Shown: one piece after another, positions 4,839 through 43,900 of the stretch
How the letters are laid out: every line of letters begins with the position of its first letter
Position numbering within the stretch: position 1 is the stretch's first letter
The notes under the pieces: model-generated
What the model saw: the letters and a program-made list of their open reading frames with translations, nothing else
The model's database searches: none
Told to the model about the DNA's origin: nothing
Program-made: the position numbers and the translations under genes
DNA from: a virus
Direction: 5' to 3' (one strand)
Virus record (IMG/VR): IMGVR_UViG_3300045988_165521
Length of the DNA: 64,000 nucleotides

Positions 4839-5643
4839 TAAAAATATTACTTCAACTAATCCAGTCGTCATTAAATCGCATGAATTGCTGGAAACTCCAG
4901 AGATGGACAATCAGCAGCCAAGCACACCTTTAACAAAGTGTGAAGGTTCAACGACTAACTAATGAAACTATGTTAACATTAATTTTAATAATACTATTTA
5001 GTTGTAGAATATATTATAATCCTAGTCCATTGTTTGAAGAGTATAAAAATTATAGAAATCAAAAACATGAATTAGAATTAGTACAATGTGCTAATACAGA
5101 TAAGAAAATTAAGCAGCTATTATCTATATACTTAGATAAGTACCAGGGAAATCGAATATGGATAATACAGTATCATAGAGGGATCAATGACTACATGTGT
5201 GGTTCTATGAGATTTGAACTTTATGATAAACAAACTAAACCTATTAAATATCAGTATACTGATTTTAACCTAAGTTGGTATACTCTACCCGATTATTTAA
5301 GAATCCATGATAGTTTTATAGGAAAACTTGAAGAGGTTGATCCTGTTTTATCTATAAGTAATAGTGCAAAATATATTATTTGTAAATTAATAAGAGATTA
5401 CAATAATGTTTCTATTGGTATATTTGGTATATCTTATTTAGATAAGCTTCCTAACAAATTGTTAGAAACAGATCTGCAACAAGATTATATTGAATTACAA
5501 AAATTAATGTTAGAATAGAATATAATTTAGACACGAGCGTGCGACATCTAGAAATAGATGATGATATAGTCTGAACTACAGATATAATCTAAAAATGAAA
5601 CTGTAGAATTAACAGATAAAGAACTGTTAAGTTAACATAATTG
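4839..5643 (+). mobile_element. Group I intron (805 nt) in the deoxynucleotidase gene
   Basis: P1 pairs exon tgacgaT (4832-4838) with intron Gtcgtca (4864-4870), giving U.G at the splice site. Core blocks are gaattgctgg 4882-4891, caatcagcagcc 4908-4919, ggttcaacgacta 4945-4957 and gatatagtctgaacta 5563-5578. It ends ...cataattG (5643). Confidence 0.8.
4970..5518 (+). CDS. intron-encoded ORF of unknown function (182 aa from ATG 4970); no homing-endonuclease motif recognised
   Basis: It lies between the P7 5' strand and the P7 3' strand (the P8 loop region). The hydrophobic N terminus MLTLILIILFSC suggests a signal peptide or membrane anchor. No LAGLIDADG, GIY-YIG, HNH or His-Cys signature is present. 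The track start GTG 4940 overlaps the intron core, so ATG 4970 is more likely. Confidence 0.5.
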   Translation: MLTLILIILFSCRIYYNPSPLFEEYKNYRNQKHELELVQCANTDKKIKQLLSIYLDKYQGNRIWIIQYHRGINDYMCGSMRFELYDKQTKPIKYQYTDFNLSWYTLPDYLRIHDSFIGKLEEVDPVLSISNSAKYIICKLIRDYNNVSIGIFGISYLDKLPNKLLETDLQQDYIELQKLMLE

Positions 5644-7666: not shown

Positions 7667-9910
7667 ATGACTATAGAAGAATGGTTAAATAAAGACGAAC
7701 TTGCAATAACAATTTGAAATAATAAATATAGATTTGAAAATGAATCATTAGACGCGTGGTTTAAACGAGTAAGTAATAATAATCCTGAAGTCGAAAAACT
7801 AATCAGAGAAAAGAAATTTATTTTTGGAGGACGAATTTTAGCAAATAGAGGTTTGAATTCTAAAAATAAAAAAATTACTTATTCAAATTGCTATGTAATT
7901 GCTCCTCCACAAGATAATCTTGAATCTATTTTTGAATGTGGATCTAAGCTAGCTCGTACTTTTAGTTATGGAGGTGGATGTGGAATTGATATTTCAAATC
8001 TCCGTCCAACAGGATCTAAAGTAAACAATGCAGCAAAAACAACATCTGGTGCAGTTAGCTTTATGGATTTTTATTCATATATTACTGGATTGATTGGACA
8101 ATCTGGAAGACGTGGGGCATTAATGATCTCAATATCTTGTGATCATCCAGATCTTGAAGAATTTATTGAACTTAAGTCAAATTTAGATAAAGTTACAAAA
8201 GCTAATATTTCTGTTAGAGTTAGTGATAACTTTATGAAATCTGTTATTAATGCAGAAACTTTGATTCTTAAGTTTATTACAGATACAGGAGAAGTTATAA
8301 CTAAAGAAGTTGAAGCTTATCCTATTTTTAGAAAATTAGCAGAGATGAATTGAGATTATGCAGAGCCTGGAATTTTATTCTGGGATGCTATTAAAAATTG
8401 AAATCTTCTCTCAAATAACCCTGATTTTTCTTTTGCTGGAGTAAATCCATGTGCAGAAGAACCACTTCCTGCAGGCGGTAGTTGTTTATTAGGAAGTATA
8501 AATCTTGCAGAATTTGTTACAGAATGTGAAACATTTGACTTTGTAGGATTTAAAGATACTGTTAAAAAAGCAGTAGTTGCATTAAATGAAGTACTTGATG
8601 AAGGTCTTCCATTACATCCTCTTATTGAGCAAAGAGAATCTGTTAAAAATTGGAGACAGATTGGACTAGGAGTAATGGGATTAGCAGATATGTTTATAAA
8701 ACTAGGTATTAAGTATGGCAGTGAAGAATCTATTAAATGGATTAATATGATTGGAACTGAAATGATCTTTTCAGCTTTGGAAAGTTCTAATGAACTAACA
8801 ATAAGTAAAGGAGCATATCCAATGTTTAATACAAAAGTTGTAGATACACCTTTCTTTCAAGCGCTTAATACTAAGGAAAATAATCTTCGATATCAGGAAT
8901 TAAGAAGTAATGTTCTTTTAAGAGGATTATGTAATTCTCAGTTATTAACTTGTGCTCCTACAGGTAGTATTGCTACTATGTTAGGAATTTCAACAGGTTG
9001 TGAACCTATTTTTGCAACTTCTTATACAAGAAAAACAGAATCTTTAGTTGATAAAGAGAAACTTTATAAAGTATATACTCCAATTATCCAGAATAATTTC
9101 ATTTCAAAAGGAGTTCCTGAAAATCAACTTCCAGAATATGTAGTAACTTCAGAGAACATTCCTTATACAGAGAGAATTCAAGTTCAAGCTGCTTTACAAA
9201 GATATATAGATGCTTCAATTTCCTCAACAATAAACTTACCTGAATCTGCTACAATAGATGATGTTGAAAGAATTTATAGACTTGCATGAGAGTATCATTT
9301 AAAAGGCGTAACTGTTTATAGAGCAGGTTGTAAAAGAGGAGCTATTTTATCTAAGAAACCTATGGGAAGTAAAGAATTAATGAAGCGTCCAGAATCAATT
9401 GATGCTAAATTAATTAGATTTAAAAATGGAACTGAAAACTGGATTGCATTTGTAGGTTTAGTTGATGATAGACCTTATGAAGTATTTACAGGAATTAATA
9501 ATATTGAGGATTTTCCAATTCCCTCAACTATTACCGAAGGTAAAATTATTAAGGTAAAAGATGAATTTGGTAAACGATATGATTTTCAATATGTCGATAA
9601 GTATGGATATACAAATCGATTAGGAGGATTGTCTCGCATCTTTAATCAAGAATACTGGAATTATGCTAAATTAATATCTGCTCTATTAAGAGGAGGAATT
9701 GAATTAGATAAAGTAGTCAAGATTATTGATGGTATGCATTTTGAATCTGATACTTTAAATACCTGGAAGAATGGAGTAAAAAGAGCAATAAAAACATTTA
9801 TTGTTAATGGAACAGAATCTCACGAACTTTGCCCAGATTGTGGTGACCATTTAATATATGAAGGTGGTTGTACTATATGTAAGAGTTGTGGATTTAGTCG
9901 TTGTGTATAA
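7667..9910 (+). CDS. nrdJ: class II (adenosylcobalamin-type) ribonucleotide reductase
   Basis: Track ORFs 7853.., 8675.. and 9362.. share the frame of ATG 7667 and are joined by TGA at 7715, 8351, 8399 and 9287. Motifs are YSNCYV, SYGGGCGIDISNLRP, TSGAVSFM, NPCAEEPLPAGGSCLLGSINL, TVYRAGC, and a C-terminal CPDCG...CTICKSCG zinc ribbon. Confidence 0.85.
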
Positions 9911-15828: not shown

Positions 15829-16009
15829 GAATTTTGATGTAGAGGTAGAACCTATGACTAAATATGAATTTTATGATAGAATTAAGAAAATTCAGTTACA
15901 ACATCCTGAAAATAAATGAGTCAAAGGTTATTATATTAACTGGAATGGATATGAATTCTGGTTAATGGAAGAAAATTTTAATAAATTATATGAAATAATA
16001 GAATGTTAA
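15812..16009 (+). CDS. small hypothetical protein (65 aa, one TGA)
   Basis: It reads MKARVKNFDVEVEPMTKYEFYDRIKKIQLQHPENK[W]VKGYYINWNGYEFWLMEENF.... It overlaps both neighbours by a few nt. Confidence 0.35.
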
Positions 16010-17952
16010 TCCGAGGTAAAACTGTATATGTTTATGATATTGAGATATTTCCAAATGTATTTCACTGTACAGTAAAAAATTCTGAAACAGGAGAATATTT
16101 ATATTTTGAAATTTCTGAAAGACGAAATGATCTTCTAAAACTAGTTGATTTCTTTTGAACTATTCAAGAAGAACCTCAAGATGGCATTTGAGCAAAAAAC
16201 TATACTACAGATCTACAATTCTTTACAGATAAAATATTTTGTGGATATAATAATTTACATTATGATAATCCTATAATTAATTATATTATTGATTATCATA
16301 AGAAATTGTCAACACTTGATTATCTTAGTGTTTGCAAATCTTTATATAATCTTAGTAATGAAATTATTAGATCTACAGATAGTAACTTTACTTCTTGGAG
16401 TAAATGGAAATATAAAATTTATTTTGAAACCTTGGATTTGCTTACAATGTTATATTCTCAAAAATTGCGAGTGGGATTAAAAGAAATGCAAGTAACTATG
16501 CAATTTCATAATGTTCAAGAATATGAAGGAGATTTCCAAACCTGACTTCCTGCATCTGAAATTCCTAATATGATAAAATATAATATTAACGATGTTGATT
16601 CTACTGAGGAATTATTAAATCGGTGTAAAAAGGATATAGAATTACGATTAGCAATCGAAGATGAATATGGAGTAAAAGTATTAAATAAAGATGGTGTAAA
16701 CATTGGAATGAAGATTATTACTCAAAAATATCTTGAGAAAACAGGTCAAACTTGAAATCAAATCAAGGATTTACGTTCTCCTTGTGATATGATTGATCTA
16801 AGTAAAGTTATTCTTCCAATTGTTAAGTTTGATACACCGATTCTCCAAGAAGTTCTAAAAGATATGAAAAGTCAAACTGTTTCACCTGGTAGAAAAGGTT
16901 ATGAAAAACATTTTATACTAGATGGATTAGAATATTGCGTGGGCGTGGGAGGGATTCATACAGTAAATAAACCTGAAGAAGTTATACCTTCTAATGATCA
17001 GATACTCAGTGACATAGATGTAGCTTCTCTATATCCGAGTATGATAATTGAACATGAATTTTATCCTCAACATCTTGGTAGAGAATTCCTTGAGGTTTAT
17101 TCCCAAATTAAAAATGAGCGTATTGAGGCTAAACATAATGGAAATAAAATAAAAAATGAAACATTAAAACTTGCTCTTAACGGATTAAGTGGAAATTTGC
17201 AAAATGAACACAACTTTTGTTATAGTCCGTTTACCGTTATGCAAATTAGAATTAACGGACAATTATTATTATTAATGTTAGCCGAACGATTAATTGCAAT
17301 AGGTTGTAAAATTGTTCAAGCTAACACTGATGGCTTATTTGTTCTGCGCCCAAAAAATAAAGAGCAGGAGTTTCAAGATGTTTGTAAAGATTGGGAAAAG
17401 TTAACTAAACTTAATCTTGAAGAAGATCGTTTTGAAGCTATGTTCCAATTTGCAATTAATGATTATTTAGCAATTAAAGAAGGATATTCTAAAACTAAAA
17501 ATCCTGATTTGTTAAAAACTAAAGGAATGTTTATTGATAAAGTTAAACTTGGTAAAGGTATGGATGCTACTATTATACCTGAAGCTATTAACAAATGTTT
17601 AGCTGACGGAATTCCTGTTGAAGAGACAATTCGAGGATGTAAAGACATTAATAAGTTTATTACTTATCAGAAAGTAAGTAAAGATTATTCTGTTGAATAT
17701 GATGGTAAAATTATTCAAAGAATTAATCGTTATTATATTTCTACTGATGGTCCTTGGTTATATAAGTGTAAAATTGATAGTAATGGTCGTCGATATAATT
17801 ATATCAAGTTGTTAACTGATTCTGGAGTAACAATTATGAATACTATTGACGATAAGACAAAGATTCCAAATAATATTAATTATCCATTTTATATTGCGTC
17901 TGCTCAAAAGATAGTATATTTATTTAAACATAAGCAATTGAGCTTATTCTAA
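16003..17952 (+). CDS. family B DNA polymerase (649 aa)
   Basis: ATG at 16003. Track ORFs 16306.., 16570.. and 16789.. share the frame and are joined by TGA at 16156, 16189, 16543 and 16753. Motifs are Exo I YDIEIFPN, Exo II GYNNLHYDNPII, Exo III YNINDVDSTEELL, motif A DVASLYPS, motif B KLALNGLSGN and motif C QANTDGLFV. Confidence 0.85.
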
Positions 17953-18025: not shown

Positions 18026-18035
18026 ATAATATACT

Positions 18036-18824
18036 ATGAAAAATAACAAATGATGCGTTTATAAACATACAAGTCCTTCCAAAGGAGTTTATATTGGAAT
18101 AACTAAACAAAATCCAGTAATTAGATGAAGTAACGGTTCTGGATATAAAAGAAATCCATATTTTTATAAAGCTATACAAAAGTATGGATGGGATAATTTC
18201 AAACATGAAATACTTTTCTCTAACTTAACACAAGAAGAGGCAGAAAGATATGAAAAAAACTTAATATCTGAGTATAGAAATGGAGGTAAATGCTATAATA
18301 TTCTAGATGGAGGGTTAGCTGCAGTAGTAGATACTTCTAAAAAAGTCTACCAATACACTTTAGAAGGTAAGTTTTTAAAAGAATGAACTTCAGCTACGGA
18401 AGCAGCAAAATTTTACAAAGTCACACAAAGTACTATTACAAATTGTTGTAATCCAAATTACAGAACTAAAACTGCTTGTGGATTTATTTTTAGTTATAAT
18501 AAAACTTCTAAAAAAGATCCTATTATCTCTGTTTCTACAAAAGCAGTAAATCAATATGATTTACATATGAATTTAATAAAAAAATGGCCATCTAGAAGAA
18601 AAGTCCAAAAAAACTTCCCAAATTGAAGAATTGGGGCATGTTTAAATGGTAAGGTTAAATCTTGTAACGGTTATATATTTAAATATACTGATGACGCTAT
18701 ATCAGAAAAACCTGTACATAAAGGAAAATTAGTTACTATTAATGGAATTACTTATCAATCATTAAAGCATGCTTCTACTGCTTTAGGAATTACTGTATAT
18801 AAAATAAAAAAATTGTTATGTTAA
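18036..18824 (+). CDS. free-standing GIY-YIG homing endonuclease (262 aa)
   Basis: This gene is absent from the track because of in-frame TGAs (18051, 18126, 18384, 18624). It reads MKNNK[W]CVYKHTSPSKGVYIGITKQNPVIR[W]SNGSGYKRNPYFYKAIQKYGWDNFKHEILF...EEAERYEKNLISEY, followed by C-terminal helix-turn-helix-like repeats (ATEAAKFYKVTQSTI...). I walked the frame fully. The stop is TAA at 18822-18824. Confidence 0.8.
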
Positions 18825-19580: not shown

Positions 19581-19670
19581 CAAGAAACAATGGCGGCTTA
19601 AATAAGTAATTATTTATGCATAACCCAGTGAATTGCTGGAAGGCTAAAATTTATTAAACTTTTCTACAAG

Positions 19671-19702
19671 TTTGGATATATCCAAATTTATCATTAACTT
19701 TG
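19671..19702 (+). promoter_or_regulatory. Bacteroidota-type promoter candidate (TTTG-N20-TAacTTTG) inside the thyX intron, upstream of the HNH ORF
   Basis: TTTG lies at 19671-19674 and taactttg at 19695-19702. The ATG is at 19733. Confidence 0.45.
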
Positions 19703-19732
19703 TTACAGTAATAAATATAAAATTTTTAAGCT

Positions 19733-20509
19733 ATGAGAAAAATGGATATTAACGTAGGTGATAAATTTGGAGATTGGACTGTAACAAATATAAATGTTCT
19801 ATCAAAGAATAAAAGTAGATATGTATTATGTCAGTGTAAATGTGGCTATATGGGAGAAGTTAATGCCTCAGCCCTTAGAACTGGAAGGAGTTCTAGCTGT
19901 AAATCCTGTGCCAAAAGGAAAAATACCACAATTTTAAAAGTAGGAAGTAAATACAAACATTGGACTATACTAGAAGGTCCAATATACAAAAATTCTACTG
20001 CTTATTACAAAGTTAGATGTGATTGTGGGACTGAAACCTATAAGTTACCTATAGAACTTCTTTATAAAGATAGGGACTTTCAATGTGAAAAATGTGCTCA
20101 TAAAGAGAATATGGAAAATATTAGAAAGAAAAATGGAGAAGTTGGAGAACTTACTAAAACTGAATATACTAGGCTTAAGAGGTCTGCTGAAAAGAGAGCT
20201 TATGTTTTTGAGGTTTCTATAGAATACTTATGGAATCTATTTCAAGAACAAAAACAAATTTGTGCTATTACTGGGGATTATATCCCTAATATAGAAGAAG
20301 CTTCTCTTGATAGAATAGACTCCTCTAAAGGGTATATTGAAGGTAATGTTCAATGGGTAACTTATCAAGCTAACTTAAGTAAACATGTTATGACAATGGA
20401 ACAATTATACGAGTTTTGTAGAAAAGTATTAAATCATGCTAATCAGCAGCCAAGCCAGAGGTTAACAACTCTGGAAGGTTCAGAGACTAATTGATGAAAC
20501 TATGTCTAA
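19733..20509 (+). CDS. intron-encoded HNH homing endonuclease
   Basis: The N-terminal Cys-rich repeats are CQCKCGYMGEV...CKSCA and CDCGTE...CEKCA. The C-terminal region is SLDRIDSSKGYIEGNVQWVTYQANLSKH. The track end at 20494 is a tandem TGA-TGA; with TGA=W the ORF runs to TAA at 20507-20509. The 3' end overlaps the intron core. Confidence 0.75.
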
Positions 20510-20742
20510 AATAATTTTTGAATGTCCTGTATTGCAGGAATTTTGGGACAAATATATAGCCAATAGAGATTGGAATAAAACTTGTAAAGAGATTAGTACA
20601 ATTCTTGATGGCTTAGAGTATTTTAGTGTAGAATATAATTCAAACACGAGTGCTGGACATCCTTTATAGGATGATGATATAGTCCGATACTCTGAGGAAA
20701 CTCAGAGAGTTCAAGATAAAGAGCTTGAACATTAACTAATTG

Positions 20743-23101: not shown

Positions 23102-23121
23102 TAAAAAATATATTGTAAAGT

Positions 23122-23152
23122 TTTGTTTCCCTGAATAAATTTAGTATCTTTG
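23122..23152 (+). promoter_or_regulatory. Bacteroidota-type promoter candidate (TTTG-N19-TAtcTTTG) inside the intron, upstream of the GIY-YIG ORF
   Basis: TTTG lies at 23122-23125 and tatctttg at 23145-23152. The ATG is at 23169. Confidence 0.45.
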
Positions 23153-23168
23153 ATATAAATTTAAAAAT

Positions 23169-23912
23169 ATGGAAAAACTAACATTACAAAAGATTAAAGT
23201 TTATAAAAAAGTTTGTGGAATTTATAAAATAAAGATCCACGATAAAGAATATATAGGAAGTTCAAAAAATATTCAGCATAGATTAAGACAACATCTAATT
23301 ACTTTAAAACAAAATAAACATCACAATCATACTATGCAAAATTTGTATAACAAGTATGGCATTGATAATATTTATTTTGAAGTTATAGAAACTTGTCTTG
23401 AGGAAAATAGAATTAGTAGAGAAAAATACTATATAAATAGTATTAAACCTTATATAAATCATATTTTAGACCCTGAGAATATCATTAGAGATAAAGAATA
23501 TAAACATAGAATAAGTATCTCTAAAAAGAAATATTATGAGACACATTCTCCAGTTAATATAAAAATGGTATATCAGTATAGTTTAGAAGGAAAATATCTT
23601 CAAAGTTATAAATCGATAACAGATGCAGCTATATCTACTAACCAAGATACTACTGCAATATGTAGTGTATGTAATAATCGTAGTTATACTGCTGGTGGAT
23701 ATAGATGATCATTTGAATTAAAAGAAAATCTTTCTAAACTAAAAAAGAAATATAAGAAAATACCTGTTATTCAATATTCACTTGATAATGTTTTTATTAA
23801 AGAGTGAGATTCTAAAACAGATGCTGAAAAAGAACTAAAAATTTGTAATATATCTCGCGCTATAAGAAAAAATCTTACTGCAGGAGGATATAAATGAAAG
23901 TATAAAATCTAG
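23169..23912 (+). CDS. intron-encoded GIY-YIG homing endonuclease (247 aa)
   Basis: It contains GIYKIKIHDKEYIGSSKNIQHRLRQH...NR...REKYYI. Track ORF 23169..23708 continues through TGA at 23706, 23808 and 23895 to TAG at 23910-23912. Confidence 0.8.
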
Positions 23913-24148
23913 AGGTCCGCATAAAATAGCGTGAATTGCTGGAAAAGCCTGAGGAGGTCAATCAGCAGCTAAGCTAATTAGTAATAATTAGAAAGTTCAA
24001 CGACTAGTACATGGAGTCCAGGAATGGATGGTAAAGTACCACGAGTGCGCTACACTATTTATATAGTGAAGATATAGTCTGAACTACGTTATAACCTAAG
24101 AAAAGACGTAGAAGTATAGGATAAAGAGCCTATACGATAACAATAATG

Positions 24149-30400: not shown

Positions 30401-31855
30401 TGGATTATCCTTTGCAATATCGTTAATATCCATCGATCCCTGCTGGACATTTATAATATCCTGAGCAATATCAGCTAACTCATTTCCACGTCGCTCATTA
30501 ATACTTTTTATATAGTCCTCTAACTTTTTATCAAGTTCTTCTTCCGTTTGAGCATATTCTCACCTACTTTTTACAGAATCTTTAGGTTTATATTCATTTC
30601 AGAATCTATATTTTCCATATCCTGCTTCAGGAGCAGAAGAACTAATATATTGAACGATTTTTTCTTTATAAAACTTAAAGTTTGCGTTCTTTCTTTGAAC
30701 TTTTGAAGATAGTTCATAATTAGGAAAGAACTTACTCATAGGTTCTTCAATAGTTTTAATAATATCAAATGAATCTGTTAAACGTCTAATAGGAATAATT
30801 TCTCTAACTCTATCATAATATTTTCCAATTGTATTAGATGGATTTACTATAATATTATCAGAATCAATGTATACACTCGATAAATTATCAATTTGAGATA
30901 AATTATCATTTCCTGAATTATCTTTTTTATAATCAATATCAAGTTTAACAGGAATAATTCCTACTGTAGCTACATTAATACCTTGTTGTTCTAACATAGC
31001 TTTATAGAAGTTTAACTGATATGCTGCACCTAATTTTTTAGTAGAAGCTCATACATTATTTAATAATGCATTTCTAGTTTCATCTCAAGCTCCTACTGCT
31101 TTTCGAGATACTTTAAAATCTCGAATATGAGCATTACCATTTTTATCTACAATTAATAAGTCAATTCTACCATTAATTGAATTTAATCCTGCTGCTTTAT
31201 AAGGTTCAGCTATATCTTCAGAAACAATTGGTATTTCAGTAATGAATTTACAGTCTCTTCCAAATTTTTCTTTAGTGTCTTCTATAAAATCTCTTAATTG
31301 GTTTTGTAACAATGATACTTGCTCTTCATTTAATAATTTTGGAGTATATTCTATTTCAGGATTAATTACAGATTCAAAAAGTTTATGTACTTCTGTACCA
31401 TAATCGGTTAGTTGAGTTCAACTCTTTTGTAGATCCTCCAAATATTTATCTGCTTCGTTCGAAGTCATGCCTTTTTTCATTAGTCTTTCTTTTTCTCTTT
31501 TCAGATACTCTTCAAGATTAAATTTTGTAACTAATACTTTAGCTAAATCAAAAGGATCTCCATAGGTTGTAAGGAACTTAGTAACACCCATTGATTTATC
31601 TAATTTTAGAGCAATTTCCTTTTCTCCGTCTTCATTTGTTATTTCAAACTCTGTAGCAAGTGATTTATATTTTTTTATAGCTTCACTTATTTTATCTACA
31701 GTGACTTGTTGTTGATCTACTTGTAGTGTTGCATCAACATTATCAACTACCATATTTTGAGCGTAGTTGTCAAGAAACGTGTCCAACTCCATTTCGGAGT
31801 TGAACACTTTCTTTTCACCGTTTATCGTAATTTCGTATGTACAATTTCTTGCCAT
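27419..31855 (-). CDS. giant protein (1478 aa) with a RecB-type PD-(D/E)XK nuclease domain near the N terminus
   Basis: A single frame is open from ATG 31853-31855 to TAA 27419-27421 with TGA=W. It joins track ORFs 31418.., 31085.., 30599.., 29876.., 28700.., 27773.. and 27419... I walked all gaps and found no TAA or TAG. The nuclease motifs are GRIDLLIVDKNGNAHIRDFKVS (about 31108-31173) and QLNFY (about 31001-31018). Confidence 0.75.
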
Positions 31856-34800
31856 TATTTACAATCTTCTTTTATAATATCATCATTCATTAATTTATTC
31901 TTGATTGTAGCTACTTTTTGACTAAGTTTATAGTTTTCATGAATAAAACTATCATAGAATGGCATGATTTCTCCACTATTAATAATAGCTTTAAGTTCAG
32001 GATTAGTAATTGAAAGAATTTCATCTATAATTTCTAATTCTACATCAGATTTAATATGTCCATTATAATAGTCTGTAATCATAGTTGCTAAAACTTCTTC
32101 ATCAAAGTCAGATCCTTTCTTATTTTTATAATAAGGATTTTGTCGCATTTTATTTCATAATTCAGTATCCTGTATATTACCTAAAATCTTATAATAAGAC
32201 TCGGCATACATATTTCTGGCATCTGCTAAGTATAGATGTGAGAATTCATGAATTAGAGTATCGTCTGTAGCTCTATCAATATTAATATAAATTATTCCTT
32301 CTTTAATAAATCCTTTTGCATTTTTAGTTGCAGTATCTTCATTAATTACATCCTGATCTGTTACTAATCTTACATTTTGTAAAGAATTTACATTTTTTAC
32401 TAATTCTGTAATCTTAGTAGACATTGGAGTTTTTAAGTCATAGAATTTGGTTGGTCCATTATTAAATAAAGTAAGTTGATTTGGATCAGTTCTAACAAAA
32501 GCTCCTGAATTAAAGATAATATATTTTAGAGTTCTAGATATAAGATTTTTAGAAGATGTATTAGTATTATTAAACTCGTCTACTAATATGTTATGTTCAC
32601 CTATTAGTTTATTAGTTACAGCATACATTCTTTGATCATATCCTTCATCAAATAACTCTGCTACACTTTCAGCTATACCTCATTCCGTATAATAGTCAAA
32701 ATCAATGTAAGAAACAACTTCTTCATTATTTTTATCTGCTTTTGTTTCTGCAACTTCAATAATTTTAGCAATTTTTAAAGCTTCTTCAACAGATATGTCT
32801 GTTTTAGGAATATTGAATCTTACTTGTCTATACTGTTCATTTCCATCAGATACTAATATTGGTTTAGTAGTGTCTGTAGTTGAATCATTATAATCTCTAT
32901 CTAAAGAAGTGTTTTCTTCAGATTTAAATCCAATGGTTTCAACATTTTCATTTGCTGCATTAATAAGTACTGCTTCTGCTCTTTCTGCCATACTATCATT
33001 TGGATCTCGTTTTAGGAATGTATTAGCAAGTTCTTGTGGATTTTGTTGGTCAATTCAATTATTATAATCAACAACTCATAATGAATTATCTCCACTTGCT
33101 ACTAAGTCCTCAAACAAACGAGTTAATGAAGCCTGTCCAAAACCATCTTTATTAACAATTAAGTTATATAAATAGAAGGCATTAACAGGATTTAGAGCTC
33201 CAAATTCAGGAATCGTAACTTTATTTAAACTATTAAAATCTCGTAAGATTTGTTCATAAAGAGCTTTAGTCTTTTGACTATTATCTATCTGCATCATATT
33301 AAATGGAAGTTTATAAAAACCTCTTTCCTTACCTTCTGAATCAGTTTTTAATCCAAAGCATAAATATTTAATAAATGCATTATCAGGTAATTTTTCTTTA
33401 AGTGTAGGAATAATATAATCCTCAATATACATTCTAAATGAATCAATATTATCCTTACTGTCTAGATTAATTATAAAGTTTTCATCTTTATTAATTAAAA
33501 TAGAATTTTCTACCTTATATTTCTGATTAACTGGAACTTGAAAACTTAAATTTTTAGTTTTAATTCATGAATCAATTAAGAAATCATCAATATTATTTCT
33601 AGTTTGTCTAAATTCTTCTATAGATAACTTACTTCCTCTTTTAGGAGTAGTTTCATCTATAACAATAGATTCAACTTGATTTCTAACTGATAATCGATTA
33701 AGAACTTCATTATCAACACTTAGAATATTAAACATTTCTTTGAAGTGTGGAACACTAGCTATAACATCTAATATATTAAATGTAGTCTTAACTTTTTCAT
33801 AGTTATCAATTTGTTGTAATCTGTATTCTTCATTAGCAGCAAACTTTAGTAGATTAAATTTCTCTCCAATTTCATCTTTAAACTTATCATTAATAAATGT
33901 TTCAATTCCCTTAATATAAGAATACTTTCCTCATTTATCTGTAGGAAGTCCTTGATTAATTTTTAATAATCTACCTAGAATTCTAATTTCTTCTGCACCT
34001 TTAGCTTTCTTCTTTAATGTTTTAAATAAAATTTCAGTTCTCTCATTTGCTTTTTTAATATCAGCTTCAGATGCATTTGGTTTATAAACTGCATATCTTG
34101 AAGGATCCTCAATAGCTTGATCAATGAAATGAATTTTATTTTTTGGAATTGGATCTGTTCAAAGATTTGTATTATATTCCGATACAAGTTTAGTAACTTC
34201 TTCAGATACCATTAAATCTCCAATTCTTCTTAAGTCCTCTCCAAGCATTAAACTATATACATAAAGATCAACTCAATTAGAGTCTGCATTAATTTTCTTA
34301 AGAATTAACTCCTTAGCATTATCTGTTGCAGCATTCAGTAACTCTCCCATATCAAGAGATTTATCAGTTAATCTTCTTTGGAAGTCTATTAGCTGAATAA
34401 TATTATTTGCAATATCTGCAGGAACTGCATATTTAGAAATTCATTCAGGATCATTTTCAAACATAGAAAAATCTACATTTGCTAATGTAATTAATTGTTC
34501 TGTTCCATTACGTTGAGAACCTTTAATAAATGAATATCTACTTAAAAGTTGTCTAGTTGTATCAAAATCTCTATTTACAATACTATCATAAACTTGTTTA
34601 AATCTAGTATTATATAAGTTAGATAATGCAAAGAAACTCTTTAATCCTGTAGCAACATTACCAATTACAGTTTTACCAACCATATTTTGAATTTGCATTA
34701 AATATTTACTAGCAGAATTATAAGGATTCATAATTTTTGCACTTTCTCCTAATACAGATTTACTTGCAAGTTCTTGCATATGAGATGTTGTAATAGGCAT

Positions 34801-34971
34801 TGTAAGGTTAATCTGATTTTTAGGACTCAGTATTACATCAAATACACCATTTACAATTGCATTTCTTATAGCATCCTGTTTTAAGAATGGAGATATTTTT
34901 GGATCTTCTGCATTTGTAAGTAATTTTCCATTATCAGAAATAGAATAACCTAATATATAAACTTTATCGAT
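31855..34971 (-). CDS. giant virion-type RNA polymerase-like protein, exon 2 (C-terminal 1038 aa) with a zincin HExxH domain
   Basis: It starts IDKVYILGYSISDNG.... It joins track ORFs 34441.., 33076.., 32680.., 32155.. and 31855.. through TGA only. DTLIHEFSHLY contains the HEFSH codons at 32236-32250. The stop is TAA at 31855-31857. Confidence 0.75.
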
Positions 34972-35280
34972 CATTTTTGTTAGCTTATACTTTCGTATAA
35001 GATCAGACTATATCTTATATTAAATTACTATTACCATAATTTAATATCCTCTTATTTCCATAAAATAATGTACTCTACTTGTTTATTCCTAATAATATTT
35101 CTTTATTAGTATACTTTCGATAGTCGTTGAACCCTTCTTTTCAGAATCGGCTGCTGATTGTCCAATACTTATAATTTTTAAACATTCACACTTAAATCAT
35201 TTTTAGATTTTATGTTGTAGTTTATAAGTCTCTAAGGAGTTTCCAGCAATTAAAGAGGTTTTATTATGACACGTAACTCT
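34972..35280 (-). mobile_element. ORF-less group I intron (309 nt) inside the RNAP catalytic DxDxD motif
   Basis: This is the only block in the 9.1-kb frame with in-frame TAA/TAG (35203, 35020, 35008). Core blocks, in plus-strand coordinates, are ccagcaatt 35243-35251, ggctgctgattg 35149-35160, tagtcgttgaacc 35121-35133 and tcagactatatc 35003-35014. P1 pairs exon attatgaT (35288-35281) with Gtcataat (35270-35263). It ends ...aaaaatG (34972). Confidence 0.85.
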
Positions 35281-38200
35281 ATCATAATCAGACCCTTGCA
35301 ACCATGTCTGATTGGTTGGTACGTAGACCTCGTTTATGTCACTATCAGTAAATAGAACTACTTCCATTGGCATGAATGACTGCATTGACTGACAAGGAAT
35401 ACGAGTACCTACAAATCTTAAACTTTGCTCAAACGCTTTATATTTTCTATCAGCGATTTTCATAATTCTATTACTAAATCTAATATTTTGATTATCACTT
35501 AACATTTGAATTAGCACTTGAGGATTTATAGATTTGTAATCTAAAATTTCTCTAGTTTTAATATCTCCAAAATCATCATAATATGATAAAGTAACATTAT
35601 CTGACGTAAATTGATTTGCAATTAAGTTTTTGTAATTAGATAATGTATAGTTATACTTATAGTTATTATAGATTCTAGAGTTATTAATTTCAGAAAATCT
35701 TTCAAAGTTATCTACAATTACTAGGTCATGTATATTTCCCGCAGTATCAGTATATTTATAAAACTTCTTACCTTCTGCAGATGCTATTTCTTTTCCATTG
35801 TAGTAAACAGAATTATCAACTATAGTAAAATCTCCATTTGGAGTTAAAGTATCCTTATATAAATTATTCAGATTTTGGTCTCCAATTTTTACATAAAGTT
35901 TTTTTCCAGTTCCATCAAATAATATTATATCATAAGATTCAGGATCAGGATTATCATTGTTATAATAACCTTGAATTCTCTCTTTAAAGAACTCAGCTCC
36001 TCTTTGCTTAATTTTAGCTATAGAATCTCCTGGCAATAGACCTAATTGTTTAGCATATAATTTACCCATAATAATCTGGGCAGGAATTACTTGTACAGAT
36101 TCAGGTTGTACATATATACCTTTTCATTGGATCATCTTACCATCAGCTAAATCATTTAATAATTTTTGCTGAGATTTATGTAACGAGTTTTCTATAAAGT
36201 CAATATCGATTTCTCCCGCACTAGGAATTAATGTTCCTGCTGCTCTACGAATTAGAGCTATTCTCTCTGTAGTAATAATATTAACTCATTCTAGTTGCTC
36301 AGGGGTTAAATCTTTTTCAGGTTTTCCTTTAAGCCCAAGTTCCTTTTTAATATTAGATCTTAATTCATCATATAGAGATTCTACAGTAGTACTAGAGGTT
36401 CCATTAAGATAATGTAATGCACGAGTTATATCTCCTTCAAAAATACTATGTTTTTCTCCCTCAATAATAAATATTGTATCAGAGCCTTTAAGATTTTTTG
36501 GACGTAAAGATAATCTTTGTGCATATCTCTTATCTAAGTTTTTATACCAATCGTATTTTGAATAATTATCAATTTTTACAATATCATACATATCAGTAGT
36601 AACCTTTCCCATATATCCTTGATATAGTCTCTGTCCTTCTTCGTTTAATAAAGGTTCTTCTCCATTAAACATCGGATCATTATAAACTACTAATGTATCT
36701 TCAAAATCGATAGGATTTTCAGCAGTAAGTTCTGTAACAAATGGGTTAATAAGATTTTCTCCATTACGAGTAACAAAAGGACCTTGCATTGCTTCATTAA
36801 TAGTTAAATCTGCAAGACGAGGATCTGTAGCTCTACCTACCTTTCTTACTAAATCTAAAAGTTCATCGTAGTTATAGTTATATCCTCCTCAGTTAAAATA
36901 CTGTTGTATTCCATATGATGGATTTAATACAGATGCAACACCATCATAATGACGTCTAATTGCATCTTTTACTAAAGAAGATGTAACTGTTGAGTTAAAG
37001 ATACCATTAATAGTACCTGCACTAAAAGGAATTTTATAATCGATTTTCTTTTCATTAAAACTTTGTTGAGCAAGTTTTATAAAAGATTGTGCAAGTCCTA
37101 AAGTATCTTTATTATTTGTTTGAAAAGCTTTAACTAAAGCTTTACCATAAATTTCATATAAGGCTTGTTGATCTCCTGTTTCAAGAACTTCATGAATTTC
37201 TGCAATAGCATCATGACATAATTTACCAATTTCTTGATATACTTTTGTTGCTAAATCGTGTGTAAATCCATTTTGTTCAAGAGCACTAATCATCTGAGTC
37301 ATTTCAGTAACTTCTGCTTCATCAAGTTCGTGATCTGCATTCATCTGAACTCCTCCAAACTTAGTTGACATTGTAGTAAACCATAAATCAGAATCATTAG
37401 TTCAAATATCATCACCATTAACATTAGAAGCTCCTACTTTGATAGCAGACTTATTTACAAGATACCCAATCATATAGTCTTTTAGATTATTATCATTAAT
37501 AATATCATTAACAACATCTAAATTATTTTCTGATCAATATAATTGTTTCATGGTATCATTGTATTCCATTGATCATGCTCCACCAAATATTTGATCTAAA
37601 TCATATATACTACTAATTTTAATATCTGTATCGAGTATACTATTTTCTCCAATTATATTACCAAATATATCGGTTTCAATACGTTCTACTTGAGCTACAT
37701 TATTATTAATAACTACATGATTTATTTTCCAATAAGTTTGGTTATCAGGTTCTCTATAGAAGAGATTATCAAATACTTTGTCATAAACGATTGTTACACT
37801 AGGATCAAATAGTAAATTATGCATTTTTCTAAACATATTTTCTAACTTGATATCTGATCCCCATGATGTACGCCTATTAGCATTTGTAATCTCATATTCT
37901 GCTCACTTTAATAATTTAGGTAAACCATATTCTCCATTCATATCTGCTAAAATAGTCTTTTTATTTCTACCTACTTTAGCATCAATTAGTGATACATTTT
38001 GTTGTCTAGAAAAATACGGACTTGTAAATCCAGATCCGTCCATAGAATCAACACTATCAGTCATACCAGAAATATTTTGTACAGCAGCTCCAATATCTCC
38101 AACTACAGCCATTTTAACTTTTGGAGCAACTCCATTTTTTAATCCTTGTGCAAAGGAATGATGAGTAGCTCCATAAATAACCATACGTTTTACCTGAGAA

Positions 38201-40998
38201 ATTCATCTGCTTGCAAAACTATGTTCAAGATATCCTTCTGTTGCAGAAACCTCTTTATTCTTATTTGGGTGAGCGTAAACTCCTCCAACCATCATTTTAT
38301 TATATTCATTACTTAAAAATGAATCCATAATGAAATACGAATAAAGCATAGGATTTAATTTACCATCCTTATCATGTATTGTTACATAAGGAACTGTATA
38401 TGATATTGGCTCATCATTTTCATCAACAGTTTCAATAGTTCTTTCAGAAATTCAGTTACTTCATTTTCTAGCAGAAAATGCCTTATATACATTTTTGTCA
38501 GAAGATATACTCTCTCAAGCTTTTGAGCTGTCTTCAAGAAACCTATTTAATTGATAATTAATAAACTCATCAAATTGATTTCTTTCGCTGAATATATTAT
38601 AAAGATTTTCAAGTGTTTCATTAAAGACATTTTTCTTAGTATATGGATCTTTAGATATATGAACTTCTTCAATAAATTCTAATCCGCTGTCTCTAAATTT
38701 TTGCTTAATATCTGCAAGTTTTGTTTTTGCAATATATTCTTTTAGATCACTTATAGTCTTAAATTCTTTACCTGTAGCTTGAGTATAGTCGTTTAAGATT
38801 TTATTAATTAAGTTCGTATATTGACTTTGATTTGTTTTAAATCAAATATTCATAATAGGTTCTAAATCAGATACATTCTTACTAGAATAATATTTCTCTA
38901 AAACTTCCTTAAAATTAATTGAACCTAAATCTTTAAAATCTCAATTTTGACTTAAATCAAATTGCATTACAAAATGTTTATTTTTATCTGAATAAACTGT
39001 TGATTGCAATCCAATTACTCCATTTACCTTTCCACCCTGCTCAGAAACAGATTTACTTGAAGTTAATCCTTCAAAGAAATCATATACTATTGCAAGATGT
39101 ATTACTTCATCTTCAGTAAGATTACTAGATTGTTTAGTATAATCTCCAATAGTTACTTCTGCTCGAATCTTTGGATTTTTAATACGTTGAATATTGTTAA
39201 ATACAGCATTATCACTCATTACTGTATCAGATCCTCATCCAAGTTCATCATGTAAATATTGGCTCATTTTCTTATGAGAGTACGCTAAACAAACCATTTG
39301 ATATAATGGTAAATTGTTACCTTCTGCATTCTTAATAACATTAATTGTATCAGAACCATTAGTAACACTTAATACTTTTGCTAAATCATTTGCTTGCCCA
39401 AAGAAGCCATTTTTGCCTATATCAATAATTTGACCTGAGTTAGCACTATATAAAATACTACCTAATATTGGAGTTAATAATGTAATTTTATTTACATTTT
39501 TTTCTCTTGGGAATACTTGTTCTGCAACTTGATTAAAATCATCTGCTACTAAAAATGAAGCAAAATCCATAAGTAAATCGTCCATTAAAGTATCAGATAT
39601 TATTCCTGCAGAATTAATTTCTCCAGTATCAGGATTATATTTTAAATTTAAAGTATTACTGCCTTCTGTAATACTAATATTAGTTCCAATAATATTAATA
39701 TCATATTTTCCTAACTTATTTTGGAAGTTAGTTTTATTATCAATTCAGTAAGTACTTGCAGCTTTAATAATATCTGTAAGAAAATATCTCTGTATTTGTA
39801 CAGGTCTATCAGTTAAATTCTTACCAGTTAATTCTCCAGTTAAGTTATCTTTACCATAACTAATATAACTTGACAATACTGTCTTATTCATTAGATGTGT
39901 ATACATTTGTTTAATTGGAGTAGCCATTTTATCTGAATAGATAAACTTAGCAATACCTCTTAACTTATTTTGTAAGTAAGTTGTATGTTCTGGTGCTACA
40001 GATTTAGTTGCTAGTGCATTTAAATATTTTCCAATAATTTTACTCATATCCATATTGCCCTCTTTAGCTATTTCATCAACTATTTCAGGGTCAACACTTT
40101 CCTCCATAAATAATTTTACTTTACCCATAGCTGAATTAAATCCAGATAAGGTAATAGCTGTATTTTCTATAATAACACCATCTTCATTAACTTCAGGAAA
40201 ATATGAAAGTAAAATTTTTGCGAGGTCACTGACGGATTCTTCAGCTCCCATAAATTCATTATTACTAAAACCAGTATAGTGTGTAACATTCGGACCATCA
40301 TAATTATAACGTCCTACAGCATAAGTTGAACTATTTTTATATTCTGGTTTAATAGAAATAAATGGAGTATATAATCTCAATATATCATCAAAAGTTTTTA
40401 ATGTTACATATGCATTATATGCATTAAAATATTTTTGATCTTGAGTAAGTCCTGCATTTTTAATGTAGGCTTCATATTCTTTTATAGTATCTTCAAATAC
40501 ATTAATAATAGATTTAGGTTCTGAGTCAATGCTAATAGGAGTTAGAGGTTTTCCCATGAACTCACTAATAATAGATAAAAGTTCTTGTTTATATTTAAAA
40601 ATTCCAGTATTTAAATTGGAATAACTTCCTAAAGTAGCATTTGCATCTATAAAAGAATCAGAATTAATATCAAATACAGACATAGAAATAATCTTTTTTG
40701 CTGTATCGTCAATCATTTTATTATATTGTCTTGAATTATCAATATAATATTGTTGAGGTGAAGATCCTTCGGGAGGAAGTTCAATACCTAATCTACTACT
40801 AATCTTTTTAGGTTCAGATACAGGTGTTGGAGCGGAGTCTGTATAGACTCCACTCACAAACATATTAAACACCTCATCTGGATTTGTAAAATGCTCATTT
40901 ATGAACACTTTAAACGCATTTAAATCTGGTGAATCACCTCTAAGTAAGTTCTTCAGTAATGGATAATATGCTGAAGAATATCCACATTTAACACTCAT
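35281..40998 (-). CDS. giant virion-type RNA polymerase-like protein, exon 1 (N-terminal 1906 aa)
   Basis: ATG at 40996-40998. It joins track ORFs 39745.., 39235.., 38941.., 37903.., 37573.., 36889.., 36286.. and 35203.. through TGA only. It ends ...VGTRIPCQSMQSFMPMEVVLFTDSDINEVYVPTNQTWLQGSDYD, which mirrors beta-prime RAPTLHR...NADFDGD. Confidence 0.75.
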
Positions 40999-43900
40999 TA
41001 TTTTCTAATTTTGCTATTAAGTATTTCTGTACATTTTCTCTTAACTCGTTGAGAGTTTCATTTGTACTAACTTCGTTATAATATGTACTTGCTATAGTTT
41101 CAGTTACTTCTGTATTTTGCATTAGAGCTTTAAGGTACATTAAAATATTAGGACTTGATTTATATAAATCTTTTGCAGAATTTAAATAATCTCTAAGTTC
41201 TATATATTCATTCATTGTATTAAACTCTCTAATTGAGTAAACTCCATCTTTATTTTCAAGTACAAAATTCTTTGAATTATTGTTCAAAGATACTAAAAAT
41301 GGTACAAATTTCAAATTATTTCTAGAGATAATTGTAACATCATCTGGATTCTCTCCATAAGCTTGTTTAAACAAATTCTTAAGCATAGGAGTAAGATCAT
41401 CCTTTATTTCCTTCATTACAATTTCAGGATTATTAGAGTCTCCAACAATTTGAATTATTGTATAATTTGGAGTAGTAACTTTATTTAATATTTCATTATT
41501 AACATCATTAACTGTTGATTCTAATAAGTCTATATTTGTAATTTGTTTGTTTACTCCAAACTGTTTAAACGCCTCATTAATTTTATTAATCTTTTGACGT
41601 TGTAAATCCTCTTGAATAGCTCTTTCAGGATTAACTTGAATCTTGTCATAATCTATAATAAAATCGTTTCCTATTAAATTAGAAGCATTTGTAGAATATA
41701 GTTTATTTGCAGTATCAACTTCATAGTAGAATTGAGATCCTGGAACTACTTTAACTATATTATCAAATACATAAATACCTTGCTTAAAGTTTGGATTGTT
41801 TTCAATATGTTCTTGAAGTTTTTCAGTTTTTCCAACAAAGTCTGCAAAGATATTATATATCATAAATGATGGATCATTAAATTCAAATTTACCAACTCTA
41901 CTAATGTAACCTGTTTGCATTAACATTTGATTAGAATCGAAAGATCCAAACTCATTATTTAGTAAAGAATCAAAATCAGAATAAGTTTTTCCATTAACAA
42001 CATATTGTCCATTCTCCATAGTTACTATTCTTTCAGTAACGTTTCCTCTATCAGCTTGAGTTACTTTATCTTCATAAGTAACTCTAATAGCATTAGTATA
42101 TCCTGATTGTGTATTTAATAATGCTCCTAATCTAAATAATATAGTACTCTTATAAGGAGAGAAATATGCAAGTGAAATCAATTGTCCAGCTCTTTCTCTG
42201 TTAAGATTATTTCTAACTTTAACATTTTTGTCTCCTGCTTTTCTTTGTGCATTAAATAAATTAACATTATTAATTGCAGTATGAATTATATTATCTAAAG
42301 AAGCAACACTATTTATTCCTATTAATCGAATTCTAGGATCATTTTGAACAGTATTTAAAATAGTTCCGTCTTCTGCTACTTGTGCTTTTAAGTGAGCTTC
42401 AAATTCCTTTTGACTAACTAATGGATCAGCAGAGAATAACATAAATGTATTTCCTCTATTCTGATACATAAATGCATAGTTTCTTGAATCTGCTTCAAAT
42501 GTGTTTCCTACTCATTTAATATGATCCTGCCAATCTGACTTACGTACTACTAAAGATACTAATTTTCCGTAAGAAGAGAATAAACCTCCTTTATTTAAGG
42601 CACTTGTATTAAAGTTAGATACATCAACAGTTGTTAACTCTCCTTCTCTTGTAAACTTAGCATAACTTCCAATTGTAAAATCTCCTGTATATATTCCAAA
42701 TCTTGGAGTTGTAAACAATAGAGGAATTTGTGCTGTTTTATCTTTTATCTGAATTTTTGCTACTAATAATCCTCTTCGCCCATTATCATATGGAACTACT
42801 TCAAAAATAGGTTTAGTTTTTAGTGCAGTTTCTAGTTCACTAAAAGCACGACCCATAGCTCTATCTTTATTTAAAGCTTGTCCTAATCGTACAATTTCTC
42901 TTGGATTTTTATAATATCCATATTTAAAATAAGCAGCAATTAAATTTAAAGCTCTAATATATTTAGGAGCTGCAAGTTTACCTTTTATTCCTAATATATT
43001 AAATAAAGAAGATTCTGTAGCTTGATCATAATTTCATAAATTATTTAAATAGAAATCTGCAATATCATTCCATTTAGAAATATTTAAAGGATTATCTGTT
43101 ATTCCTATATTCTGAGGAACTTCTTCAAGTATATCTACAGGAGGAGTAACAGATTGTTCAACATTAGGAGCATGTACTGGATTTTGATCTGTAACAGGAG
43201 GTTGTTCTCTAGTATTACTATTGAATGTTTGTTTGCTTTGTGCTTCAGCTACAGTATTTTTAGTCTCTGGTTCTACAGAAGCTTGTCTAACTGGTTCCTT
43301 AGGAGATTCACTAACTATTTCTGCTTCTGGTGTAGGTTCTACTCTTGGCTTAATATTTTGTTCTGAAGTTGGTATAACAGGTTCAGCTACAATTGGATTT
43401 GGATTTACTTCTTCATAATCAATAGATTCAGGACTATTCTCTAATAACTTAGTTCTTCAGTCTTTGAAATCACTAATTTGTTCAGGAGATACTTCAATAC
43501 TTCCTGCACTAGTCATATCATTAATTGTGTTTAACTTTAAATCTAGACTAATCCCGTTATCTACAATAATTGTACCTTTTGTAGAACGTTGAGTTAATGT
43601 ATATAAATCCTTAAGAGTTAAATAGTGTTTTCCACTCGTATCTTTCCAACTCTTGTCTATGATTGCAAATTCAAATTCATCACCTTGGACACTATCTAAT
43701 CCTACTACTTTAACATTATTAATAGCAGTATATTTAGCAGGATTATCAGTTATAATTGCAATATCATTAGATAGTTTAGATAACTTTTCTACTATTTTAG
43801 GTACTTCATCTGAACTATTAATAAATTTCTCCCCACCAAACGTTTCAGTAGTTTCAAAATATTTAAGTTTAATACTATTTTCAGATAATATCTGTTTCGT

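Follow-up and report, generated by a model that had tools for sequence, protein, structure and literature searches.

A predicted group I intron without an open reading frame splits the DxDxD motif of a crAss-type phage RNA polymerase gene

Among the viruses of the human gut, zeta-group crAss-like phages rank with the most abundant. Their genomes of 145–192 kb recode UGA or UAG and carry up to 14 group I introns each, and their RNA polymerase open reading frames (ORFs) are broken "within ... the DxDxD motif of RNAPB'", for which "additional, yet unknown expression mechanisms" were proposed (Yutin et al., 2021, PMC7886860); a 2023 review repeats the suggestion (PMC10136315), and we found no later paper resolving the breaks in the zeta-group polymerases. 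Introns were located in the 2021 study via endonuclease domains, and the legend of its Figure 3 places an intron endonuclease of the LAGLIDADG type within the block of transcription genes; an intron without an ORF would therefore have been missed. Here we analyze one such break in a 64,000-nucleotide (nt) stretch of viral DNA, IMG/VR record IMGVR_UViG_3300045988_165521 (hereafter the window). A sequence-only reading of this DNA had proposed that a block of 309 nt on the minus strand, 35280..34972, is a group I intron that splits a giant polymerase-like gene. Our follow-up leads us to conclude that this block is very probably an ORF-less, IA-like group I intron in the gene for a crAss-type single-chain RNA polymerase.

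Group I introns of subgroup IA are well known from phages, for example from the td, nrdB and sunY genes of T4 and the DNA polymerase gene of SPO1, where they lie in catalytic motifs of essential genes, with or without an ORF, and have a U.G pair at the 5' splice site and a terminal G. Their elements run in the order P1-P3-P4-P5-P6-P7-P7.1-P7.2-P3'-P8-P7'-P9 (Michel and Westhof, 1990, and work of the Shub lab). The window intron resembles them in the order of its elements, as predicted helices, in the U.G pair and in the terminal G, and differs in that it has no P2 and carries a 70-nt extension of P5. Functionally, the nearest precedent is the group I intron of phage PhiPA3, which lies in the gene for the beta subunit of the virion RNA polymerase and encodes gp210, an HNH nicking endonuclease of shown activity that attacks a competing phage (Birkholz et al., 2024, PMC11620839). 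Like the window intron, it interrupts a gene for a (here presumed) virion polymerase directly after two conserved Asp and is polymorphic among related phages. PhiPA3, however, is a jumbo phage of Pseudomonas, and its polymerase is multisubunit, with the beta-like subunit split and not the DxDxD barrel; its intron carries an HNH endonuclease, whereas the window intron is ORF-less and its relatives use LAGLIDADG enzymes. In comparison with the zeta-group phages of PMC7886860, the window shows the same kind of phage, recoded TGA and dense introns; the breaks were left unexplained there, whereas here we assign the break to a putative ribozyme that has no ORF and is delimited to the base, and we describe four clustered insertion sites.

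If TGA is read as Trp, one frame on the minus strand stays open across 41004..35206 and 35007..31858, and no other frame is open in the region. The 309-nt block is the sole break in the minus-strand frame 40998..31855. Excising it joins 35281 to 34971 in frame and yields 2944 codons from an ATG at 40998, with 24 TGA, five TGG, no TAG and, as the stop codon, one TAA at 31857..31855; a frame scan and the spliced translation thus bear out the 9.1-kb frame, the coordinates and the count of 24 TGA codons given in the sequence-only reading. Exon 1 ends ...GGG TCT GAT TAT GAT (G S D1 Y D2, with the first Asp, D1, at 35289-35287 and the second, D2, at 35283-35281), and exon 2 starts ATC GAT AAA (I D3 K, with the third Asp, D3, at 34968-34966), giving after in silico excision the junction ...NQTWLQGSDYD/IDKVYILG (slashes mark insertion points here and below). 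Unspliced RNA would be read through for 25 extra codons, with the predicted peptide ...GSDYDRVTCHNK..., to a stop at 35205..35203, in a product from which D3 is absent.

We infer that TGA is read as Trp. The TGA codons of the window mainly align with TGA or TGG in relatives (for example eight TGG and five TGA in L026) and with aromatic or hydrophobic codons in distant relatives, a comparison that supports TGA as a sense codon. ARAGORN found no tRNA genes within the window. In-frame TGA codons occur in genes on both strands, with four in a ribonucleotide reductase-like ORF (7667-9910) and five in a DNA polymerase-like ORF (15985-17952), and the intron-encoded endonuclease ORFs of relatives carry them as well; the recoding is therefore not confined to late genes.

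The strongest evidence for the exact boundaries comes from intron-less alleles in nearly identical phages. Relatives of the gene were fetched from IMG/VR, with source contigs of up to 174 kb (related contigs 164–174 kb). Eleven intron-less contigs at 96–99% protein identity (L001-3, L008-14 and L016) read GATTATGAT/AT[CT]GATAAA, which is the junction predicted for the window. Comparison of the DNA leaves a 1-nt ambiguity, an A common to both ends, and since the base before the 5' splice site should be U and the last base of the intron G, this ambiguity is resolved in favor of 35280..34972, whose 3' end reads ...AAAAAUG. At the 5' splice site, the last eight exon bases AUUAUGAU pair at all eight positions with the guide sequence GUCAUAAU, with a U.G at the splice site itself. 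At the same 96–99% protein identity, the 309 nt with identical junctions is present in five IMG/VR contigs (L004-7, L024) and four ENA/Logan contigs (L079-82), and two contigs (L019, L020) have a different intron 6 nt upstream.

The occurrence of the same block and junctions in independent IMG/VR, ENA and Logan assemblies also led us to reject an assembly chimera or similar artefact. A block length that is a multiple of three would suit an intein, but in-frame TAA stops and the lack of a Hint domain or any other protein-family signal led us to reject this candidate too, and explanations of this kind seem to us scarcely credible.

Protein databases tell of the same junction. A search with the spliced junction returned many proteins with contiguous ...LQGSD[YLF]DIDK.YI.GY..., and in a survey of protein clusters the motif is contiguous (GSD.DID) in 61, while 23 end inside the motif and 15 start with M-IDK, M-YDIDK or M-DYDIDK. 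Two clusters (94 and 80 member sequences) have exactly the sequence of the window, with GSDYD running into the read-through RVTCHNKTSLIAG.... The splice sites named in the sequence-only reading are thus upheld by intron-less alleles that carry the predicted ligated sequence, by more than 60 homologues with contiguous GSD.DIDK and by a P1 that covaries with the exon.

These alleles also bear on the idea that the break is overcome without splicing, by hopping or frameshifting during translation or by some of the "additional, yet unknown expression mechanisms" suggested in PMC7886860 and PMC10136315 for the stop codons and frameshifts in the DxDxD of zeta-group polymerases. Those published breaks speak for such recoding. 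The edges of the block, however, are the edges of an insertion/deletion polymorphism, all features of a group I ribozyme are present, and a bypass of 309 nt would be unprecedented, with nothing in the sequence that calls for one. We regard non-splicing recoding as highly improbable.

In silico, the block folds into the elements of a group I intron (Table 1). It holds the core strings AATTGCTGG, CAATCAGCAGCC, GGTTCAACGACTA and AAGATATAGTCTGA just as the sequence-only reading had quoted them, and its catalytic-core strands are identical to the Rfam consensus or one base off; for instance, GGUUCAACGACUA differs from the consensus GUUCAaAGACUA by a C for an A. Folded without constraints together with ten exon bases, the intron has a minimum-free-energy structure that contains P1, P3, P4, P5 with its extension, P6, P7.1, P7.2, P8 and P9, at -59 kcal/mol (z = -2.66 against dinucleotide shuffles), and the P7 strands GACUA/UAGUC form the expected pseudoknot. 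From the predicted helices, among them P7.1/P7.2, we tentatively assign the intron to an IA-like subgroup. We found no ORF of at least 60 codons inside the 309 nt, and no homing endonuclease is encoded; in related introns the LAGLIDADG ORF sits at the position of P7.1/P7.2.

Table 1. Features of the interrupted polymerase gene and its predicted intron, insertion sites of the motif in relatives, and other candidate introns of the window
Feature	Position	Strand	Pairing	Remarks
Exon 1, giant RNA polymerase gene	35281..40998	minus		1906 codons, 15 in-frame TGA
Exon 2	31855..34971	minus		1038 codons plus TAA, 9 TGA
Predicted group I intron, 309 nt, no ORF	34972..35280	minus		phase 0, between D2 and Ile codons of DYD/ID
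P1 5' strand, last 8 exon bases	35281..35288	minus	AUUAUGAU	U35281 in U.G wobble at 5' splice site
P1 3' strand, internal guide sequence, intron nt 11-18	35263..35270	minus	GUCAUAAU	fold and pairing
P3 5' strand, intron nt 23-28	35253..35258	minus	CCUCUU with AAGAGG 35053..35048	3 of 6 pairs changed on both sides
P4	35152..35248	minus	UGCUGG 35248..35243 with UCAGCA 35157..35152	covariance model, fold, alignment
P5, inside P4	35238..35236 and 35163..35161	minus	UCC with GGA	plus ~70-nt P5 extension
P6/P6a hairpin	35131..35151	minus	GC-CGA-UUCU-GAAA-AGAA-GG-GU	covariance model, fold, alignment
P7 5' strand	35121..35125	minus	GACUA, within GGUUCAACGACUA	5 invariant pairs with 35010..35006
Predicted P7.1/P7.2 hairpins, between P7 and P3'	35056..35120	minus		subgroup-IA-like feature; fold only
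P8 hairpin	35017..35047	minus		12-bp A/U-rich stem; covariance model, fold
P7 3' strand	35006..35010	minus	UAGUC, within J8/7-P7 AAGAUAUAGUCU	identical to Rfam consensus
P9 hairpin	34984..35001	minus	CUUAUAC-GAAA-GUAUAAG	then tail CUAACAAAAAUG with terminal G (34972)
Intron site EG[SA]/DYDID (L046, L064)			GGUGCU with GGCACC; GGGUUCU with GGAACCC	ORF in P1 loop
Intron site GSD/YDID (L019, L020)			GGUAGUGAU with GUUUCUACC	935 nt; host gene 99% identical to the window's
Intron site GSDY/DIDK (L086)			GUGACUAU with GUAGUCAC	LAGLIDADG ORF
Intron site GSDYD/IDK (window and others)			AUUAUGAU with GUCAUAAU (window)	309 nt here, 926-930 nt elsewhere
Candidate group I intron	23102-24148	plus		splits AAA+ ATPase-like gene at ...FNRAD/PRFIQ...
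Candidate group I intron	4842-5643	plus	P1 pairs 8/9	same core; splits gene at ...IMIDD/KYDNY...
Probable group I intron	~19581-20742	plus		in ThyX (Thy1) gene at ...QESTR/YCNYSK...; boundaries by eye

Covariance models and comparison among relatives agree with this anatomy. Proposed as a check in the sequence-only reading, the Infernal/Rfam scan gave a divided answer. When 34850-35400 was scanned locally, RF00028 (Intron_gpI) matched at 34.9 bits (E = 2.9e-7) from end to end, model positions 1-253, but the gathering score of this family, 50, is not reached. A sibling intron region with the same core (23880-24100), scanned in the same local way, reached 65.7 bits (E = 9e-17), above the gathering score, and a family model (R1) built from related introns matched the target as two halves, 35270..35084 with 55.2 bits and 35040..34972 with 50.5 bits. 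R1 also matched 23915-24112 and 4864-4996; its matches to both halves of an intron near 20413-20719 were weak. We then compared five distinct introns at the DxDxD motif in a MAFFT alignment of trimmed cores with long insertions removed. Helix positions were paired in 90.7% of cells, compared with 30–44% when the 3' partners were slid, and 11 of the 38 pairs had changed on both sides, values that none of 500 shuffles reached; the pairs of P4 and P7 were invariant. With five sequences and trimmed insertions the power of this comparison is limited, and we therefore take the covariation as supporting, not decisive. Compensatory changes in the helices together with a guide sequence that tracks the exon indicate selection for splicing. 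The claim of a group I intron thus holds on the local RF00028 match, the sibling above gathering score, the family model, the unconstrained fold and the compensatory changes.

To place the interrupted gene, we compared its spliced product with the experimentally characterized crAss-like virion RNA polymerase gp66 of phage phi14:2 (g066, NC_021806), which is annotated as "Catalytic RNA polymerase subunit" with tandem mass spectrometry (MS/MS) evidence and whose structure is that of Drobysheva et al. (2021), as cited in PMC7886860. The only DxDxD of gp66 is GSDFDIDKMYVM, at residue 1361, and its counterpart in the window is GSDYDIDKVYIL, such that GSDYDIDKVY in the window corresponds to GSDFDIDKMY in gp66, with GSD[FY]DIDK shared. 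A pairwise blastp against this one subject placed window residues 1858-1913 opposite gp66 1314-1370 (34% identity, E = 9.5e-6), spanning the DxDxD, and a second collinear segment had an E value of 0.02. Aligned by hhalign with gp66 1151-1800, a family profile built without gp66 (A1) matched with a probability of 96.5% (E = 8.2e-10) over 159 columns, and G-S-D-x-D-I-D-K is invariant in 18 homologues. On these matches the gene is homologous to crAss-type polymerase genes. The match of the catalytic segment with its shared motif agrees with the earlier proposal of an RNA-polymerase-like gene split between its second and third Asp. On this alignment the predicted intron lies between the second and third Asp of the Mg-binding motif, GSD-Y-D/I-D-K. 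By analogy with gp66 and the phages of PMC7886860, the polymerase would presumably be packaged in the virion and transcribe early genes.

The two proteins are alike in being giant single chains encoded in a block of giant co-oriented genes. They differ in that gp66 has 2180 amino acids, an uninterrupted gene and the standard code, whereas the window protein has 2944 amino acids, an intron-split gene and 24 UGA codons. Outside the catalytic segment we detected no similarity to gp66. Searches of PHROGs, Pfam and PDB sequences (phmmer, hmmsearch) with the spliced protein or the family profile returned nothing informative, which fits the extreme divergence published for crAss-like polymerases (PMC7886860). 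No INPHARED phage matched the gene in a megablast search, and tblastn gave weak matches to crAss-like phages with uninformative annotations. The sequence-only reading had further drawn a parallel to the double-psi beta-barrel of beta-prime. This parallel found no statistical support, as A1 aligned by hhalign with a segment of E. coli beta-prime (an approximate sequence) at a probability of 0.2%, and the resemblance stays at the level of the motif. An initial AlphaFold model from 23 sequences had a predicted local distance difference test (pLDDT) score below 50 at the motif and was discarded; a deeper model of a 441-amino-acid fragment from a relative of 59–62% identity reached a pLDDT of 81.9, and its matches in BFVD were only uncharacterized proteins of crAss-like and 'gcode 4' phages.

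Several observations weigh against our interpretation. On the structural side, Foldseek with the pLDDT 81.9 fragment found no match in the PDB at E<=1e-3, neither 6VR4 nor any polymerase, and a fold of two double-psi beta-barrels thus found no confirmation in this search. On the RNA side, besides the RF00028 score below gathering, Rfam scans of the whole window at gathering and E-value thresholds gave no intron match, nor did sub-scans of 8 kb. P10 has at best 2 base pairs (bp). The intron is 72% A+U, with long insertions in P5 and P7.1/P7.2, features for which a protein cofactor may be needed, as opposed to strict self-splicing. The intron closes with an ATG in frame with exon 2, so exon 2 could be translated separately. 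Finally, we infer both splicing and autocatalysis from sequence alone. The weak Rfam signal has a likely source: we attribute the low score to the long insertions and to speed filters. A gathering-level scan of 10 related loci (L009, L019, L021, L026, L031, L036, L046, L057, L064 and L086) likewise gave no matches, while these loci hold many group I introns bearing endonucleases that short local scans recover; default filters therefore miss this A+U-rich family of introns.

The most serious form of these objections is that the intron has decayed and no longer splices. The polymerase would then be made as two associating polypeptides, exon 1 plus 25 residues and exon 2 from the terminal ATG, or the gene would be a pseudogene. 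This idea draws on the in-frame ...AAAAAUG with its preceding A-rich stretch, on the 'M-IDK...' proteins that gene callers give for many relatives, and on the missing endonuclease ORF and sub-threshold Rfam score. But a terminal AUG or UUG is a feature of the family, seen also where introns interrupt other genes of the window. The core strands are at or one base from the Rfam consensus, and the helices and the guide sequence change under apparent selection for splicing. Both exons are open over 9.1 kb, the 309-nt allele recurs in at least nine independent assemblies and in the two protein clusters described above, and a split would place D1 and D2 on a different chain from D3. We therefore consider a decayed intron improbable and continue with a splicing group I intron.

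In the mechanism we propose, the last eight exon bases of the pre-mRNA would pair with the guide sequence to form P1 and so set the U.G wobble at the 5' splice site, which would be attacked by an external guanosine bound in P7. The freed 3'-OH of the exon would then attack after the terminal G (34972). The resulting ligation, ...GAUUAUGAU-AUCGAUAAA..., would restore the 2944-codon frame, whose translation would also require that 24 UGA codons be read as Trp.

The window intron has relatives at the same and neighboring positions. At the same site, GSD[YL]D/IDK, relatives of ~60% identity (L021, L036-L044 and L056-58) carry an intron of 926–930 nt with the same core and a LAGLIDADG_2 ORF that contains TGA codons (E values of 4e-21 and 5.5e-18 in long alleles). 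Where the exon differs, the guide has been re-matched to it, as in L021 (ACUACGAU with GUUGUAGU) and L036 (ACUUGGAU with GUUCAAGU), and the guide has also changed to fit the exon in L040, L019, L046, L064 and L086. Since the window copy has no endonuclease ORF, it would be non-autonomous; judged by its sequence, it is a non-autonomous member of a family with longer, LAGLIDADG-bearing copies, and its presence is polymorphic.

Across relatives, group I introns occupy four adjacent phase-0 sites of the motif, GS/D/Y/D/IDK, each with a matched P1 (Table 1), and most of them encode LAGLIDADG endonucleases. Compared with intron-less alleles, carriers of the GSD/YDID intron have four synonymous changes, located exactly in the bases that form P1. 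This intron (5066-6000 in L019/L020) has a ~70-nt P5 extension almost identical to that of the window intron, differs from it in guide sequence, P6 and P8, and contains a LAGLIDADG ORF; the same-site introns of L021 and L036 are without the extension. An extension common to introns at adjacent sites and absent at the same site suggests recombination between introns or retargeting through the guide sequence.

We speculate that the introns of this motif serve in competition between phages. In such an arms race between co-infecting crAss-like phages, an intron at any of the four sites in the 15-base D-Y-D-I-D landing pad would break up the endonuclease target and thereby shield the polymerase gene, copies with endonucleases would attack intron-less rivals, as shown for gp210 of PhiPA3, and the window copy would be a 'shield only' allele retained for the immunity that it gives. 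We put this forward as a tentative possibility, and as one that we doubt.

The same gene has a second intron site, ...LLNAATD/NAKELILKK..., 217 codons downstream of the DxDxD, at which the window is intron-less. The nearly identical L009-L016 and L019-L020 have a 337-nt ORF-less intron there (6868-7204 in L009), and distant relatives (L022, L028, L033, L036-41 and L057-59) have introns of 292–357 nt or 1.2–1.3 kb.

For the lineage of the window, a small group I intron without an ORF, together with the reading of UGA as Trp, would suffice to explain the broken polymerase gene, with no need for a new mechanism, and annotation would gain a single polymerase of 2944 amino acids. Introns of this sort are missed by endonuclease-based searches and by Rfam scans at default thresholds, such that standard pipelines under-call them in A+U-rich phages. 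The locus is an instance of a kind of intron already known, and its value is for local annotation. The DxDxD codons, as a dense hot spot with four insertion sites, are of some further interest and could be useful for studies of intron retargeting and phage-phage competition.

The sequence-only reading had counted four plus-strand introns with the same core. The core is indeed common to introns on that strand, but we found three (Table 1); searches of the window with core strings and the family model showed no fourth. The intron at 23102-24148 contains a GIY-YIG/NUMOD1 ORF (23145-23912), and its guide GUCCGCAU pairs at eight of eight positions with the exon end GUGCGGAU; as the guide lies downstream of the ORF, the ORF appears to be inside the P1 loop. 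The intron at 4842-5643 has a 194-codon ORF (4934-5518) without a Pfam match, and the gene that it splits matches the N-terminal domain of dATP/dGTP diphosphohydrolase at its N-terminus. A 259-codon ORF (19730-20509), also without a Pfam match, lies in the probable thyX intron, for which P1 is weak (4 bp) and the family model scores 17–20 bits. Between the polymerase-like gene and thyX, the plus-strand ORF 18030-18824 (264 codons, beginning ...WCVYKHTSPSKGVYIGITKQNP...) is GIY-YIG endonuclease-like and may be free-standing or part of a further intron.

The window has 27–33% G+C, and its strand composition flips near 27 kb, consistent with genes that lie on the plus strand before ~27 kb and on the minus strand after it. 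The minus-strand part (27419-63998) holds co-oriented giant ORFs of 1479, 2944, 2629, 640, 1541 and at least 1513 codons, several of which abut or overlap, and the 2629-codon protein has a Walker-A-like GGAGTGKT motif. In its layout this block resembles the transcription and virion block of crAss-like phages. The protein P0150, from a 566-bp ENA contig, ends ...GSDYDIDKVCLLYTSRCV; its tail CLLYTS is the translation of the Nextera adapter CTGTCTCTTATACACATCT, and the contig therefore probably ends in untrimmed adapter.

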